Assembly (NCBI GenBank): GCA_022813865.1
Contig: JALDZX010000042.1
Location: 124,001 to 188,000, forward strand
Length of the DNA stretch: 64,000 nucleotides
Source of the DNA: Xylographa opegraphella
Taxonomy: Eukaryota
Direction of reading: 5' to 3'
Part shown: positions 1,992 through 35,689 of the stretch, one piece after another
Layout: each line of letters begins with the position of its first letter
Position numbering within the stretch: position 1 is the first letter of the stretch
Position numbers and translations under genes: made by a program
The notes under the pieces: generated by a model
Database searches by the model: none
Seen by the model: the letters and a program-made list of their open reading frames with translations, nothing else
Told to the model about the DNA's origin: nothing

Positions 1992-4345
1992 ATGGCTTTC
2001 CGAACGCCTCTGTCAAGCGCATTGGCTTTCACTACTGTACCCGAATCTGTGTGGCAATGTTGCGACTGTCATAACACGAATGCTGTTTTTGATCATTCAG
2101 ATAGTTGCGAAGCTTGTCATGCTGTTAAATGTGCGAACTGCCTTGATGGTACTCGTTCTTCGAAGCCCTGGCAGCCAGCGACATTTTCCGAGGAGATCGC
2201 AAGATACAATGCATTCCCACCAAGAGATAACGAAATTGACGAGGTCGAAGAGGTTGGTGAGGCTGGTAATGACTTGACTGCTTCACCAAAAATCTCATCT
2301 CCTAAACTACCCAACGTTTCCAAGGTATCCAAAAAAAATAATGAAGCAAATTGCAGCAGTCACACCTCAGGCAATTCAAATAGACGTGGATCGTGTGACA
2401 AAAGAAAACCCTGACATTCATGTGCTCCGCGGTTACCAACCATTTACAACGTCCGACCTCAAGCCTGCGGTATATTATAAGAATCTGGATCTCTTTTACA
2501 AGCTGCCACAATTGCCACCTTCTAGAGTATACGAAGGGCAACAAATACATTATGGATTTAACCCAGAGCACTTGAACGCTACAGGTGCATTGTTTAAAGA
2601 AAATACGCTTCCTAACAATCTGAATAATCCTATTCATGAGATTCTTAATATAAATCATTGGACAAACACGGAAGACAGTATTTACAAAACTCTAGAGCCG
2701 GCACTGCGCTTAGCCTCCATGTTCCTTCAACAACCAGTTGCTTTTCAGGTCAGTTGACTTCAAGTTCAGAGAGTCTCGGTGTGCTCACATCAGGTTGCAG
2801 TGGTGGTGTACCGTGATGTTTGGAGAAAGGAGCCTAGACCTTGCAGCACCAGGGTTATCCGGGCTACCCGCTCAAAGGATAAAGGAACATATTCCGATAA
2901 CTAATGAGAACAGCTCTATACTCACAGAATATCTTAAATTTCTTGGAACCCATGTAGTACCGGAAGAGGGCCATATCTTTACTTTCAGATTTGCAGAGCA
3001 GAACAAATTGGACGATTTGGCGACGAATGCCTTGCAAAAACCCTGCGGAGACACTTATGGACTTTCACTTACTATACTAGATTACAAATCTACGCGAGCT
3101 ATTGGTAGATCGTGGTTGGAACACTGGTTCGTGGCAAAGCCGAAGAGAAAATATAATCGTGTTCGTGTGCTTATGCACGGCGACTTCTATATTACGGCCC
3201 GTAAATTTCGAGACACCACTAACCTCGATATTAACCATTTTCTCAGATTTAATTTCATATTTGCGGCGACTCTTTTACACGAGGTAAGTGGCTATTATTT
3301 CGAATCTCTGACAGCGCGTTGATAACTGATCTTGCCAAGATTTCCCATTGTGTGGGTTTCATAAATGCGCGTCATGGAGAGGATGATAGTCTATATATTC
3401 CGGAGCCTTTCTTGGGAAATGCACTTGAGAGGGAAAGTGGTTATAATTGGGAACGTTCCACCTTTGGTGGCCGAATTACACCAATCAATGGCGACTATTC
3501 TGGCAGGTACGGAGTCTCGATCTCGGAATGGCCCATGATAAAACAGTATGAATGAATGGCAGAGGTCCTTCCACGCGATCCGTATGGACTATATGGAGCG
3601 AATTCAACAACAAAATTACTGGAAATCGACCGCGAAATTGGTGGAAGGCGAGGATAGGTCACGCTATCTTTATGTGCCGAGGGACGGATGTGCTGTTGCT
3701 TGGAGCATGCCTCACGTTATGCCAATGAGGTTCGAAGACTTGGAGCTCGAAAGATTATGGAACCTTGCGGACGAGCAAGAGGCCGAAGAAGACCGGCTGG
3801 AGGAACTGGAGTATGCAAAAAACGACAAAATTCAGGACGAGCTGGATCGCCAAGAAGAGGAGCGGAAAGCAAATGAACAAGAGTTGATCTTAGCCAAAAA
3901 AGCTGAAGAATTGCTTGAAAGGGAGAGGAGCCGACAAGCGAAAGAGAAGCAGCGCTTGGAAGACGAAGCACGAGCTAGATACAGGGAGCTCTTTGGTGAC
4001 AATGATCCGTGGACGTACGAAAAATTACTGGAGCAGCAGGAGAAATCGAAAAGACCATCGATGCGGCTGCCAGCACGAAGGCGGGTCCCTGACAGGAGAA
4101 GCCAGAGTCCGGAAGCAGAGCGAGAAAGTATCCCGAACATTGATAATGCAGCAACCAGAGAGATAGCGCGGCTGAGAAGGGAGGAGGAGAGAAGAAAGGA
4201 TAGGGGCCCACATGACAGGATGTGGATGGACCGTGACATGGAACGTAGGGCGGTGGAAGTTTGGCAAGACCGTGCAATAAATCAACAAAGAGAGGGTGAG
4301 AGAGCGCTCTGGAGAGAGCGCGAGAATGAGCGTGAAAGAGATTGA
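1992..4345 (+). pseudogene. Uncharacterised fungal protein (CxxC Zn-ribbon, HEXXH zincin-like motif, charged C-terminus) with two apparent frameshifts
   Basis: ORFs 1992-2414, 2341-2757, 2738-3322, 3319-3555 and 3548-4345 join via introns 2749-2800 and 3284-3339 (giving ATLLHE|ISH). Frame breaks remain at the A8 run 2331-2338 and the tandem TGAA 3549-3556. Confidence 0.6.
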
Positions 4346-4677
4346 TGGCCCGACGATCTTGAACTCTCCTGAGTTCCAGAGGTTCAACCAAGGTACGCGG
4401 CAATGCCCGTAACGCTTTATTCGCAGCGCTCACGAGTGAAGGAGAGGAGATTCGTTGATCCGGGAAAGCTCTTCTGTTAAAGAGACCGCTCAGAAATCGG
4501 ACTTGGATCCAGGACTTATATGAACCCAGTACGTAGTGTTGTCATGATATGTAGCACCAATTGGTGCTGCTAAAATTAAGTAATATAGTTGAGTGGTTTG
4601 AAGGTCGATAGCTCTCTTCCCTAGATATTTATTATGTAGAGAACACTGTGATATTACAAGCCTTTTCCAGATCTGTT

Positions 4678-6033
4678 TTAACGTTTTTGCCGTGTCTCCT
4701 CAAACCCGTCCAGTACAGTCCTGGCAACTTCATCTGCTTTACCGCTGGCGTGATTTTGGTTGGACGATGATATTTCGCTACCGGCTACTGAAGCCTCCGG
4801 CTCGCTCCGCCCTTCGAGCATCTTCCTCTGCCCTTCACTGACCTTACCGTACACGGCCATCGCACTCGCGATCATCCCCCCCATATCCCCCATATTGCCT
4901 GGCACAACGACCGCCGTACCCTCTTTCGCGAGTTTCCCAAAAGCCTCCACGTATTTCTCCGCGACGCTCAGACTCACGGCCCCTTGAGCACTCTCTCTCC
5001 CTTCGCGAATGCTGCTTGCCACAGCATCAATCCCGTTCGAAGTTGCGTGAGCTTTTAACTTGATAGCCTCGGCTTCTCCCGTAGCCATGTTGATCTGCTC
5101 CCATTTCAGAGCCTCACTGGCCAAGATGACGCTCTGCTTCCTTCCTTCGGCAATGTTGATAGCCGACTGCCTTTGTCCTTCGCTGTCGAGGATCTCTGCT
5201 CGTTTGGTCCGCTCCGCCGTCACTTGGCGGTGCATGGCGGCCACCACGTCTGTCGGGGCATGGATATCCCGAATCTCGTACCGAAGGCATACCACGCCCC
5301 ACACTTGGGCGGCTTCGTTAATGGCTTGTGTGATGTTGATATTGAGGGCCGCACGCTCTTTCAGCACGTGGTCTAGGGACAACTGCCCGATTTCAGAGCG
5401 CATCGTTGTTTGCGCGAGCTGAGAGATGGCGTACTCGGCATCTTCCACACCGTAGCTAGACAGCTGTCAGCAAGTGAATACGGAAATGGAGGATTTCGAG
5501 TTAGGAGGTAAACCGTACCTGGCCTTGTAAGCGTCGAATACTCGGGTATAGAGCACGCCGTCCAGCTCGAGAGTGACATTGTCAGCTGTGATAGCGCTTT
5601 GACTAGGTATCTCGATAGCTGCTTCCTTCAGACTCTTGACGTAGGCGATACGGTCCAGAAACGGTAGTAGTACTGCGAGTCCAGGCTGTAGGATACGGTT
5701 GAACTTCCCCATACGCTCTACTATCCATGCTGTTTGTTGAGGCACGAATCGAATAATAGTGTTTGCGGGGAGGGAGGGGCGCTGAAAATATGAGGAAGGA
5801 GTCGAGGAGGAAGAGGCATTCCCGAAGAGTGAGGTGTTCGGAGCTGCAAAGTGCGTGGAAGTGGAGAGCGCCCGTCTCGAAGACTGCTTTGTGGTATGCC
5901 GAGACGGTTGTGCGGAGACGTTGCCATATAGGCAAGAGGCTCTGGCTACCGGTATTCTGGAGAGCTTCGAGGTGCGGGATTGTCGTAGAGCCGTCGAAGC
6001 TAGTCGAGCTGTTCTCACAGTGGAAAGCTCCAT
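4678..6033 (-). CDS. Stomatin-like (SPFH/band 7, SLP-2 type) mitochondrial protein
   Basis: IRFVPQQTAWIVERMGKF..IPSQSAITADNVTL..AQTTMRSEIG..LRYEIRDI..QVTAER. Intron 5518-5456. Arg/Ser-rich presequence-like N-terminus. Confidence 0.93.
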
Positions 6034-6236
6034 CTTGAGTGATTCCGAACACAATAACCAGAGTTTGAGGGTGGGTTATTGAAAAGCATCTACTCTACTC
6101 TAGACACTTTTAATAACAGGAGCAGATAGCCCTTGTCGAGTTCAGCCCTACAGCCTTGCTTGTCCCGCTGCATTGCCATCAATTTCTTGAACTTCCACTA
6201 GATTTGCTTCGTGCAAGTCATTGTCAAGTGCCCAAG

Positions 6237-7194
6237 ATGTCCGAGTACTGGAAATCTACTGTAAGTCTTTCGTGAATCGTACCAAGTATCTTTGAATCTA
6301 ACTGTTTGGTTGTAGCCTAAGTACTGGTGCAAGCACTGCAAAACCTACGTACGCGACACGAAGCTTGAGAAGCAAAATCACGATGCAACTCCCAAGCATC
6401 AGGGAAATGTCAAACGCTTTCTACGTGATCTTCACCGTGGTAACGAGCGAGATGAAAGAGAAAAACAAAGGGCCAAAGACGAAGTGGCTAGATTGAATGG
6501 TGAGCCTGGAAGCTCGAAAGGAAATGGACCGCGCGATTTTCCAAGTCGCAGGACTGCTCCAGCTGTTGCTTCCGGCGCTGGTCTGCGACAATTGACTCCT
6601 GCCGAATATCAGCAGCAGATGGCCAAATTGGCCGAGCTTGGTGTGGCAGTTCCGGACGAATACCGGAAAGAGGTAGCCATGGCAGGAGACTGGCAGGTGA
6701 TGTCTGAGACACTAGTACACGATAGAGTGAAGAAAGAAGAAGAAGATGATAATGACGTAAAGCCGAACGGCCTAAACGTGGGCATCAGGAAGAGGAAACT
6801 CGAAGGGCAGGAGGACGAGGAAGAGGCTGTCGAGCCTACTGCTAGAAGAGTCTGGGGATCTTCACTGCGTACATTTCCCGGTACCACGGACGATGACGGC
6901 GAGTTGGATGCGTTACTGAGTAAAACATCTACAAATTTGAGAGGAGAGGGCCCGGCTGGAAATACGGAGACTGGTATAATCACTCCGACCACTGACCGTG
7001 CTGTCATTGCCAGAACAGATGGATCGATCCCCCTCATTCCGCCACCGTTGAAGCAAGAGGACTCCACCAACGACCTTCTCGCTACGCTGCCACTCGCTGA
7101 CAGTGCCGGTGACGTTGTCAAGCATGAGACGGATCAGGAAGAAGCAGCTGTGCTTTTCAAGAAGCGCAGACCGAAAGCGTCACGACACAAGTGA
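6237..7194 (+). CDS. U1-type (matrin) zinc-finger protein, WBP4/FBP21-like splicing factor
   Basis: MSEYWKST | intron 6261-6315 | PKYWCKHCKTYVRDTKLEKQNHDATPKHQGNVKR, then ORF 6484-7194 ending in basic FKKRRPK. Confidence 0.85.
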
Positions 7195-34056: not shown

Positions 34057-35689
34057 TTAAGCTTTGGCCGCCCCCGCTTTGATTAAGAGTATATCGCCGT
34101 CCATAACCTAGTTCGCAAATGGTCAGTACCGATCGTAACGGCGCGAGGGAGGAACCTACCACATAGTCCTTCCCCTTCGTCAATACCTTGCCGGCCGCTT
34201 TCACCCCGGCTTCGTCGCCGACTTCTTTCAGGACTTCGAAGTTATAGACTATACACTGGATGAATGTCTTTTCAAAGTCTGCATGATCATCATCAGCTTC
34301 ACGCCTGCGCCCGTCTCCCTATCATAGGCACTCACCGCCATGGATGACACCGGCAGCTTGTGGGGCTTTAGTCCCGTTCCGTATGGTCCATTGCCTCACC
34401 TCATCGGTGCCGGTGGTGAAGAAGCTCCCCAAGTTCAGCGCTTTCCTCATCGTCACTATGATCTTGGGCAGAGCAGATTTCGTCCCCAATTTCTTGCACT
34501 CCTCCTCGACCTCGGCTTCAGTGTCGAATCTGGTCAGGCGTTCCTCGAAAGAGATTGATAAAGGCAAGATCGGGTCCCCAGTCGCATGCTCCTTGACCCA
34601 TTCCGCGATCTTTGGAAGATGCTTGTTCTTTTGTCGTATATAATCCTTCTCACTGAGATTGACCAGGTAAACAACGGGTTTAGCGGTGAGCAGGAATAGC
34701 GGGTTGATGACCTCGACCTAAGAACATGATTTAGCTCAGGGCACTTTCTGGCTAATTCAAGTTCAAGGACGTAGGGAATTTGTATCAGACAGGGACTTCA
34801 TCTCATTCGGCCTCTACGTGAGATTGTATATGAGACCTATCGTAGAGCTGGGATTATGTCGAGCGTATCGCTCTTGTTCATCATGAAGGATATATGCTGG
34901 GGAAAGATGGGAATGGAGTCGTTAACATACCTCTTTCGGACTCCAGCTCTCCTTTCGGACATCCTTGCCGTCCTTCAACCAAGCCAAGATCTTCTCAACT
35001 GTAGCTTCCTCTTCTTTCAACTTCTTCATCTCGAGACTTTGTCCACCTCTTCGGGTCTGCTTTTTGAGATTCTCTAATGCTTTCTCCACAAATTCGATGT
35101 CTTTTATCCGCAGTTCCTCGCTGATAATGTCTAGATCTCGAATTGGGTCGACATCGCCCTCGACATGTATAATCTCAGCATCATCGAAGCATCTCACGAC
35201 TTGGAAGATAGCATCGACAGCTCTGATATGCGAAAGGAACGCGTTTCCGAGCCCAGCTCCAGTGGAGGCGCCTCGCGTCAATCCCGCGATATCGTAGACT
35301 GTTAGGTTTGCAGGAACTTGAGATTTCGGTTTGTAGTGATCGCATAGCCAGTCATATCTTACATCTGGTACAATAACTCGAGCCTCTTCAGGCTCTATGG
35401 TAGCATAAGGGAAATTCTAAAGCATTTCAGCTCCTGCGACTTCGACTTGAACCATTTTTTGTAGGCTTCTTACTGCAGGATTGCCCAGCGAGCATTTCGT
35501 AATCGCTTGGAACAGGGTCGACTTCCCAACGTTGGCAAGCCCAACCTGGAGAGAAAGCCGTGGTTAGCGCTTTGCGTCTTGTCACTGGAAGAGCCGATGA
35601 GGAGTCCTACATACGATACCACTTTTCAAAGAGTTCCCTGGTCTTCCCAGGAGAAGCTTCTTCTCTTCTTCCTTCTTCTTGGGAGGCAT
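34057..35689 (-). CDS. OLA1: Obg-like ATPase Ola1/YchF
   Basis: MPPKKK..LLGRPGNSLKSGI | VGLANVGKST | NFPYATI.P..DIAGL.RGAS.G.GLGNAFLSHIR..FFTTGTDEVRQWTI..APQAAGVIH | ..GKDYV|VMDGDIL. Multi-exon. Confidence 0.96.
34780..34889 (-). ncRNA. Candidate intronic C/D-box snoRNA
   Basis: Lies in the 213-nt OLA1 intron 34930-34718, on the sense strand. Box C ATGATGA at 34884-34878, box D CTGA at 34788-34785. Antisense tracts to recalled LSU rRNA sequence are described under findings. Confidence 0.6.

Follow-up and report, generated by a model that had tools for sequence, protein, structure and literature searches.

A box C/D snoRNA in the third intron of OLA1

Study of a 64-kb stretch of DNA from Xylographa opegraphella (contig JALDZX010000042.1 of assembly GCA_022813865.1, positions 124,001 to 188,000 of the forward strand; this whole stretch is called the window below, and coordinates are counted from its first letter) revealed that the third intron of the OLA1/YchF gene carries, on the minus strand, a box C/D small nucleolar RNA (snoRNA) of about 107 nucleotides (nt). 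This RNA is very probably the local ortholog of the intron-encoded Afu_304, the Pezizomycotina counterpart of yeast snR69. That a box C/D snoRNA is hosted in this intron had been proposed in an earlier note made from the sequence alone, together with a scan against Rfam as a means to verify it, and the scan bears the proposal out. RF01511 (Afu_304) was the sole Rfam match above the curated cut-off in the whole window, at 34888..34782 on the minus strand, with 73.2 bits for a cut-off of 35, an E-value of 2e-10 and an alignment covering model positions 1-107 of 107. A match of this quality is far beyond chance. A permissive scan of the surrounding 451 nt added one family only, snosnR69 (RF00475), at 29 bits for a cut-off of 50; its alignment matches the guide and the box D′ of the window to the snR69 consensus, and the Rfam consensuses of Afu_304 and snosnR69 contain the same D′ guide. 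The window RNA would then be the functional counterpart of snR69 while being, by the RF00475 model, a non-member of that family. No further Rfam snoRNA, and no match to any snR38-type family, was found within the 64-kb window.

The RNA is not new, since the family was described in 2008, and the window provides an unannotated ortholog, genuine but ordinary. According to Joechl et al. (2008; PMC2377427), Afu-304 is represented by two complementary DNA (cDNA) clones of 106 nt and by a northern band of 95 nt, lies in sense orientation in an intron of Afu1g09800, and has 26S Cm2925 as predicted target.

The features of the RNA and of its host are the following.

34782..34888, minus strand: box C/D snoRNA, about 107 nt (match to Rfam RF01511)
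34878..34884, minus strand: box C, AUGAUGA (from the sequence)
34861..34873, minus strand: 5′ hairpin GAGCG-AUA-CGCUC, between box C and the D′ guide
34845..34856, minus strand: D′ guide UAAUCCCAGCUC, in which G34848 is the fifth nucleotide upstream of box D′
34840..34843, minus strand: degenerate box D′, ACGA (from the sequence)
34809..34837, minus strand: internal hairpin GGUCUC...GAGGCC, with ACAAUCU and UCUCACGU in its loop
34816..34823, minus strand: loop element UCUCACGU, antisense to ACGTGAG or CGTGAGA of 25S ribosomal RNA (rRNA)
34798..34805, minus strand: split box C′ UGAGAUGA, i.e. UGAUGA with an insert of 2 nt
34789..34797, minus strand: D spacer AGUCCCUGU, 9 nt, in which C34793 is the fifth nucleotide upstream of box D
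34785..34788, minus strand: box D, CUGA (from the sequence)
34718..34930, minus strand: third OLA1 intron, host of the snoRNA, 213 nt, GTATGT...TAG
34057..35689, minus strand: OLA1/YchF host gene, six exons, 394 codons (Pfam MMR_HSR1 and YchF-GTPase_C on the exon translations)

Boxes C and D were found where the earlier note had placed them, on the minus strand, with 100 nt from the start of box C to the end of box D and 67 nt from box D to the 3′ splice site. The joined exons of OLA1 form a single clean open frame of 394 codons, and the five introns, all of the GT-AG type (5/5), measure in order 69, 57, 213, 57 and 52 nt, so that the host intron is indeed the long one. The claims about hairpins fared less evenly. 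GAGCG/CGCTC stands, at a conserved place. The other proposed helix, CTCTACG/CGTAGAG, does belong to the minimum-energy fold of the window RNA (34840-34846 with 34812-34818, minus strand), where it would sequester box D′ and the 3′ end of the guide; as a conserved internal helix it is ruled out, being absent from the other 58 listed members of the family described below. CUCUACG can pair with CGUAGAG in the window because box D′ reads UACGA there and, since the helix depends on this unusual D′ (57 of the 59 members have TCGA), it is not the conserved internal hairpin. The stem of the latter is made in the window by GGTCTC (34837-34832) and GAGGCC (34814-34809).

Conservation of the RNA in the OLA1 intron of other fungi

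Related loci were sought in metagenome contigs with a pattern consisting of box C, a gap and the D′ guide, which gave at least 116 loci; all family counts are counts among the matches listed. Since box C and the D′ guide were required by the pattern, they cannot be counted as independently conserved. The C′/spacer/box D arrangement was present in 73 of the 116 loci which, with the window, yielded 59 distinct sequences. The 43 loci that do not have it, which to the eye look like chance matches in GC-rich coding DNA, were excluded from all family counts. A MAFFT alignment misaligns the 5′ hairpin and box D between subgroups, and per-sequence parsing and folds were used instead.

The comparison of orthologous introns that the earlier note had suggested was thus carried out on metagenome loci, and it places the RNA between the same OLA1 exons as in the window in 64 of the 73 listed snoRNA-like loci (the end of exon 3 just upstream and/or the start of exon 4 just downstream, on the same strand). 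The nine loci without such flanks are L034 and L042, which have one common sequence, and seven AT-rich loci, three of which (L012, L051 and L099) match Rfam snosnR69. When 20 loci were submitted to Rfam, 14 matched Afu_304, 3 snosnR69 and 3 nothing; all but one of the Afu_304-matching loci (13/14) are flanked by OLA1 exons. The geometry of the intron is kept as well: its median length is 212 nt (range 167-267, n=51) for 213 nt in the window, box C lies a median of 43 nt from the 5′ splice site (n=54; 46 nt in the window), and the 3′ splice site a median of 69 nt from box D (range 48-88, n=59; 67 nt in the window).

Within the RNA, a 5′ hairpin of at least 4 base pairs (bp) can be formed in 58 of the 59 listed members, with 23 distinct stems, and it beats 95% of shuffles in 51 of them; the corresponding figures for the internal hairpin, again of at least 4 bp, are 57 members, 39 distinct stems and 37 members. 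Across the family loci the two predicted hairpins covary. Box C is invariant in the alignment of the 59, though it is part of the search pattern; D′ is TCGA in 57 members, CCGA in one and ACGA in one, the window; C′ shows a TGAG conserved to at least 90% and an invariant A. The C′ (UGAGAUGA) and D′ (ACGA) boxes of the window are both degenerate, their positions are kept across the 59 listed members, and protein binding at them is a prediction. Two relatives illustrate how the RNA is retained in a diverging intron. In X2, one substitution (at 34808) and one base inserted immediately before box C are the differences within the 107-nt RNA, whereas the intron flanks carry 18 (over 64 nt) and 7 (over 42 nt); in X3, a contig of 156 nt has one difference over 34782-34887 and is divergent beyond it on both sides.

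The D′ guide and its target

Pairing was tested on the ribosomal DNA (rDNA) of another fungus, L155, which is filed inside a bacterial metagenome-assembled genome and was found, as were other eukaryotic large-subunit (LSU) fragments in prokaryote assemblies, by using a published LSU primer as a pattern. L155 is a full fungal rDNA unit, with the small-subunit gene at 483-2282, 5.8S at 2489-2642 and the LSU at 2772-6568. Positions are counted from T, the target C, which is the C of GAGCTGGG in the L155 LSU. The middle G of ACAGGGAT is found 133 nt upstream of T. This spacing is also that of 2948-2815 in yeast, 2925-2792 in Aspergillus fumigatus and 2906-2773 in Neurospora crassa, and the L155 bases T-27, T-26, T-25, T-4, T-2, T+11 and T+27 (yeast 2921, 2922, 2923, 2944, 2946, 2959 and 2975) have the identities required by the yeast table of a 2021 review (PMC8307265). 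The transfer of yeast numbering to L155 is sound because both the spacing and the seven base identities agree. In that table, yeast Gm2815 is assigned to snR38 and Cm2948 to snR69.

The D′ guide TAATCCCAGCTC pairs at 11 of 12 positions with GAGCTGGGTTTA of the L155 LSU (T-3..T+8), with a predicted energy of -17.5 kcal/mol; the duplex consists of eight contiguous pairs, a U-U mismatch and then three pairs. G34848, the fifth nucleotide upstream of ACGA, faces T, the equivalent of yeast C2948, which is the register for the snR69 site that the earlier note had claimed. Because Cm2925 is predicted for Afu-304, Cm2948 is assigned to snR69 and the spacing of 133 nt is common to L155, yeast, A. fumigatus and N. 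crassa, the D′ guide would be that of the snR69 site, an assignment that we regard as well supported. Of the 30 eukaryotic LSU fragments examined, 19 contain the sequence GTTGGATT and 18 contain ATAGGGA.

At guide position 10, 48 of the 59 listed members have a U facing a U (AAUCCC), and 11 have the fully complementary AAACCC. The enzyme is reported to be inhibited by pairing beyond 10 bp (Yang et al. 2020; PMC7229835), and the conserved mismatch, which caps the duplex at 8-9 pairs, may be related to this inhibition.

From what is generally known of snoRNAs, one would expect the RNA to come from the OLA1 intron after splicing, its ends being trimmed back as far as Snu13, Nop58, Nop56 and Nop1, bound at C/D and C′/D′, protect them. 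The guide upstream of D′ is complementary to GAGCTGGGTTTA of 25S rRNA, and by the fifth-nucleotide rule this selects the C equivalent to Cm2948, in the peptidyl-transferase region. Extra short tracts, such as the loop element described in the next section, most likely assist the docking of the small nucleolar ribonucleoprotein (snoRNP) there, where the rRNA is highly structured, in the way published for snR69.

Short antisense tracts outside the D′ guide

The earlier note had also pointed to CTCACGT and GTCTCA as matches to 25S rRNA. These matches are real and belong to a set that is enriched beside the target: the loop and spacer of the window have five seven-mer matches to T-40..T+25, at most one G-U being allowed in each, for 0.58 in 20000 shuffles (P = 0.008), and two matches of Watson-Crick pairs only, for 0.14 in shuffles (P = 0.03). 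The tracts complementary to the L155 LSU are:

CUCACGU, in the loop: to ACGTGAG, T-7..-1
UCUCACG: to CGTGAGA, T+15..+21
GUCUCAU: to GTGAGAC, T+16..+22
ACAAUCU, in the loop: to T-31..-25
UCCCUGU, in the D spacer: to ATAGGGA, T-14..-8, -9.5 kcal/mol

The duplexes of the loop element UCUCACGU with ACGTGAG and with CGTGAGA have a predicted energy of -10.3 kcal/mol each. A further candidate, CCUGUCU (made of spacer nucleotides and the CU of box D) against AGACAGG downstream of T, was dropped as it requires nucleotides of box D.

The tracts vary across the family. Among the 59 listed members the loop contains CTCACG in 14, TCTCAC alone in 3 and AACGC in 23, the latter mostly within CAACGC, antisense to GCGTTG at T-36..-31. 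One subgroup (L002, L005, L013, L048, L083, L086 and similar loci) combines a loop AACGC, antisense to GCGTT(G) at T-36..-31, with a D spacer of 10 nt containing AAACCCG, antisense to TGGGTTT at T+1..+7 and thus overlapping the D′ target. Compared with the others, these loci show that the part of the RNA directed at this rRNA neighbourhood depends on the lineage.

There is a precedent for such pairing. In van Nues et al. (2011; PMC3116282), snR69 is among 11 snoRNAs with extra base-pairing complementarity and is singled out for an extra region adjoining the D box, a split C′ box also being reported; in other snoRNAs of that report, extra base-pairing stimulates methylation up to five-fold. By analogy, UCUCACGU, ACAAUCU and GUCUCAU are most likely non-catalytic extra base-pairing tracts that would aid docking of the snoRNP, and it is plausible that one RNA touches several segments of the peptidyl-transferase centre in this published sense.

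Points against the assignment

Several observations weigh against the reading of this RNA as a working Afu_304/snR69-type guide. Box D′ is degenerate, the window being the sole ACGA among the 59 listed members; the U-U mismatch at guide position 10 leaves 8 contiguous pairs; the D′ pairing was computed on the rDNA of another fungus; and the accessory role proposed for the short tracts is drawn from complementarity and one published analogy. A terminal stem flanking boxes C and D was not seen when the flanks were inspected by eye, but such a stem is missing in many intronic snoRNAs. The fold of the whole RNA is not better than that of shuffles (z = -0.46), as is usual for C/D snoRNAs. Finally, of the 20 sequencing runs listed, one contains the words of the sequence in full and may be the source sample, the other 19 contain small shares, and only one is an RNA run, with 0.04 of words. 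The last two points could be taken to mean that there is no snoRNA at all, a long intron having come to contain such boxes and tracts by chance. This idea is effectively refuted by the Rfam score, by the same place in the intron in 64 listed loci, by the contrast between a near-invariant body and diverged intron flanks, and by the A. fumigatus member having been cloned and seen on northern blots, as reported in PMC2377427. We therefore retain the assignment to Afu_304 and turn to the part of the RNA for which interpretation is less straightforward, the spacer preceding box D.

Is the D spacer a second guide?

The boldest suggestion of the earlier note was that a single RNA does the work of both snR38 and snR69. 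The pairing on which it was based does exist. GUCCCUGU, written GTCCCTGT in DNA letters, pairs with ACAGGGAT through 7 Watson-Crick pairs and a terminal G-U, at -13.0 kcal/mol; the 8-bp duplex begins at the first nucleotide before box D, and C34793, at the fifth position, faces the middle G, the equivalent of yeast G2815, in the register claimed. However, the suggestion as stated is not supported: the tract occurs in 3 of the 59 listed members, the duplex has 8 bp in a spacer of 9 nt, and separate snR38-type snoRNAs are reported for A. fumigatus (Afu-328, an intronic snoRNA of 75 nt for Gm2792; PMC2377427) and for N. crassa (CD23, a snR38 homolog for Gm2773, with 11 bp and no mismatch; PMC2780460). 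A snR38-type guide of about 11 nt or more was not found in this RNA, the spacer offering 8 bp and Rfam no match. When the 39 nt of 25S rRNA surrounding the snR38 site were compared with the 64-kb window, antisense matches did not exceed 10 nt. The complementarity between D spacer and snR38 site is real, but its meaning is unproven: it may be a weak second guide, an accessory contact or chance. Equally unproven is a dual methylation guide merging snR38 and snR69, which receives no support from family-wide conservation.

The spacer is the most variable region of the family. Its length is 8-10 nt in 49 of the 59 listed members, among which the types are CCAAC (19), CCCTGT (3), AAACCCG-like (8), TTATCCT (3), a TCC core (11) and others (15). 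CCCTGT abuts box D in the window, L107 and L089; in the relative X2 the spacer is unchanged. A tree made from the flanking exons and the snoRNA, its spacer removed, joins L107 and L018 as sisters (support 99/97) and puts the window closest to L088 and L063; L018, L088 and L063 all have CCAAC spacers. Forcing the window and L107 into one clade costs 21 log-likelihood units (P value of the approximately unbiased test, p-AU, 0.02) on exons plus the rest of the snoRNA, whereas the clade is not rejected on exons alone (p-AU 0.18), and the group was named after seeing the sequences. Between L107 and L018, 5 of the 9 spacer positions differ, for 92% identity elsewhere. From these trees the CCCTGT tract seems to have arisen at least twice. 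L089, a contig of 645 nt, was excluded from the trees; its match to OLA1 exon 4 is on the strand opposite to exon 3 and the snoRNA, and it may be an assembly chimera.

The CCAAC spacer (..UCCAACN before CUGA; L018, L021, L063, L088 etc.) is antisense to GTTGGAT(T) at T-34..-27, and its fifth position faces the G at T-31 in 17 of 19 cases. T-31 is the site of N. crassa CD17 (2906-2875 = 31), for which Gm2875 is predicted and plant and human homologs are listed (Liu et al. 2009; PMC2780460). A 2′-O-methylated nucleotide at the yeast equivalent of T-31 is not among the entries of the PMC8307265 table. Four nucleotides next to box D suffice to re-aim the spacer, because both rRNA sites have GGAT opposite the GUCC core. 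A separate observation concerns L041, L084 and L113 (and L116), which have a short form of the snoRNA, of 82 nt, without the long internal loop. In this form the D spacer reads UUAUCCU. Its antisense partner, GGGATAA at T-134..-128, overlaps the region of the snR38 site, though the register is another one.

At this point three uses of the spacer have to be weighed. The idea that it also methylates the G2815 equivalent, backing up or replacing snR38, is in our view rather unlikely, in spite of several features that would be expected of a guide: the duplex abuts box D and puts the fifth nucleotide on the middle G of ACAGGGAT, 133 nt upstream of T; coincidental registration with any of about 55 known sites has a probability of about 1% by our own estimate; the hexamer stands beside box D in three sequence backgrounds, with the window + L107 clade rejected at p-AU 0.02; the spacer is the same in X2; the common CCAAC spacer is itself in register (17/19) for a predicted methylation site, that of CD17; and the accepted D′ guide likewise has 8 contiguous pairs. 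On the other hand, 56 of the 59 listed members do not have the tract, the clade is left unrejected by exons alone and was picked post hoc, and dedicated snR38-type snoRNAs are reported for both A. fumigatus and N. crassa. An 8-bp match is in any case cheap: a duplex of at least 8 bp anchored in this way is found somewhere in 18S, 5.8S or 25S rRNA for 53% of uniform and 63% of composition-matched random 9-mers. The length of the spacer is a further obstacle, since in the experiments reported by Yang et al. (PMC7229835) halfmer guides with 11- and 15-nt spacers are inactive and archaeal spacers are given as about 12 nt, for 9 nt between C′ and D here; in the same report, substrates of 9-10 bp are modified well by Chaetomium RNPs. 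Moreover, the same spacer can pair over 7 bp with ATAGGGA, beside the D′ target.

This last pairing leads to another possibility, which we put forward tentatively, namely that the spacer directs no methylation but helps the loop element, by pairing with ATAGGGA or with ACAGGGAT, to keep the snoRNP on the rRNA around the D′ target. Spacer (T-14..-8), loop (T-7..-1) and D′ guide (T-3..+8) would tile 23 nt of rRNA, T-14..T+8, without a gap and in co-linear order, as expected of an interrupted antiparallel duplex. Such a contact would be in line with the enrichment of local matches over shuffles (P = 0.008), with the extra pairing next to the D box and the up to five-fold stimulation elsewhere reported in PMC3116282, and with the tracts by which other members could reach the same neighbourhood (CCAAC to GTTGGA, AACGC, mostly CAACGC, to GCGTTG, and AAACCCG to TGGGTTT). 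But the ATAGGGA duplex is weaker (-9.5 versus -13.0 kcal/mol) and contains an internal G-U, its perfect partner would be CCCTAT and yet three lineages have CCCTGT, and ATAGGGA is present in 18 of the 30 eukaryotic LSU fragments; as for ACAGGGAT, it lies about 130 nt from the D′ target, while the published cases are immediately adjacent. It is also possible, and again a tentative view, that the spacer has no function in pairing and is a fast-evolving linker needing a UCC core and 8-10 nt, its match to the snR38 site being coincidental. The variability of the spacer, with several types among the 59 listed members, its constrained length in 49 of them, and the ease with which more than half of random 9-mers give an anchored 8-bp rRNA match, when the match in question was chosen after looking, all agree with a linker. 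Coincidence accounts less well for a match in register with a known methylated site (the 1% estimated above), for the same hexamer beside box D in three backgrounds, and for the 5/9 spacer differences between L107 and L018 against 92% identity elsewhere, which look more like a switch than like drift.

A more general form of the second-guide idea would make the D spacer an evolvable guide, directed to T-31 in most Pezizomycotina and re-aimed to the snR38 site here and, independently, in the L107 lineage. We consider this unlikely. If it were true, one snoRNP would methylate two peptidyl-transferase bases, perhaps after the loss of a dedicated snR38.

Relation to known snoRNAs

With the reading as an Afu_304 ortholog retained, the closest known relative is Afu-304 of A. 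fumigatus. It shares the full-length model match, the intronic location in sense to the host gene, the D′ guide and, with its predicted Cm2925, the same rRNA position, and its cDNA of 106 nt is close to the 107 nt or so estimated here (PMC2377427). The differences lie in D′, ACGA in the window and UCGA in the consensus, in the 9 nt before box D, which deviate from the Rfam consensus, and in the host, given in that source as intron 2 of Afu1g09800, versus the third OLA1 intron here. Yeast snR69 (RF00475) has in common with the window RNA the guide core CCCAGCUC, followed by N and a UCGA-type D′, and the same target nucleotide; the split C′ box and the extra pairing next to box D reported for snR69 are a further likeness. 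It differs in that the window scores 29 bits for a cut-off of 50 and in that the snosnR69-matching loci L012, L051 and L099 do not have flanking OLA1 exons. The yeast-type locus L051 has moreover a D spacer of 17 nt and a perfect AAACCC guide, versus AAUCCC with a U-U mismatch in the window.

In N. crassa, CD27 (PMC2780460) is listed as an intronic snR69 homolog, hence from another member of the Pezizomycotina, that addresses 26S Cm2906 through D′; in its table entry it has 85 nt and the same element is also predicted for Am2904, so combining snR71 and snR69 functions. The snR38 family resembles the window RNA in its rRNA site, to which the D spacer of the latter is complementary in an identical register, and differs from it by the length of pairing, 8 bp here versus 11 bp in CD23, and by its known representatives being separate intronic genes of 72-75 nt. 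The extra base-pairing tracts described in PMC3116282 are, as here, short (4-11 bp), conserved, located between D′ and C′ or in the second guide region, and directed to sequences beside the methylation site; the pairing with ACAGGGAT, about 130 nt from the D′ target, departs from these published, immediately adjacent cases. For the non-conserved guide region, Canzler et al. (2018; PMC5824354) report targets that are lineage-specific or redundant, and they describe target switches and redundant guides as common in fungi.

In itself the result is minor, since it adds one unannotated ortholog to a family known since 2008. The family as a whole is of more interest. Many fungal metagenome contigs have the RNA in this OLA1 intron, its geometry preserved, and next to a D′ guide that is invariant (being part of the search pattern) the loop and the D spacer of 8-10 nt carry interchangeable short tracts, all of them predicted to aim at the segments of 25S rRNA that surround the A loop and the peptidyl-transferase centre. 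Should these tracts work, the family would constitute a compact natural system for studying how extra base-pairing helps a snoRNP to reach tightly folded rRNA, and also how second guides are gained, switched and lost.

Eukaryotic rDNA in prokaryote assemblies

The search for a reference rRNA brought a by-product. Eukaryotic LSU rDNA fragments are present in at least 40 bacterial or archaeal genome assemblies (L117-L156), which looks like contamination of public assemblies; no eukaryotic LSU was found among the viral contigs scanned. The L155 LSU contains a group I intron at 5109-5451.

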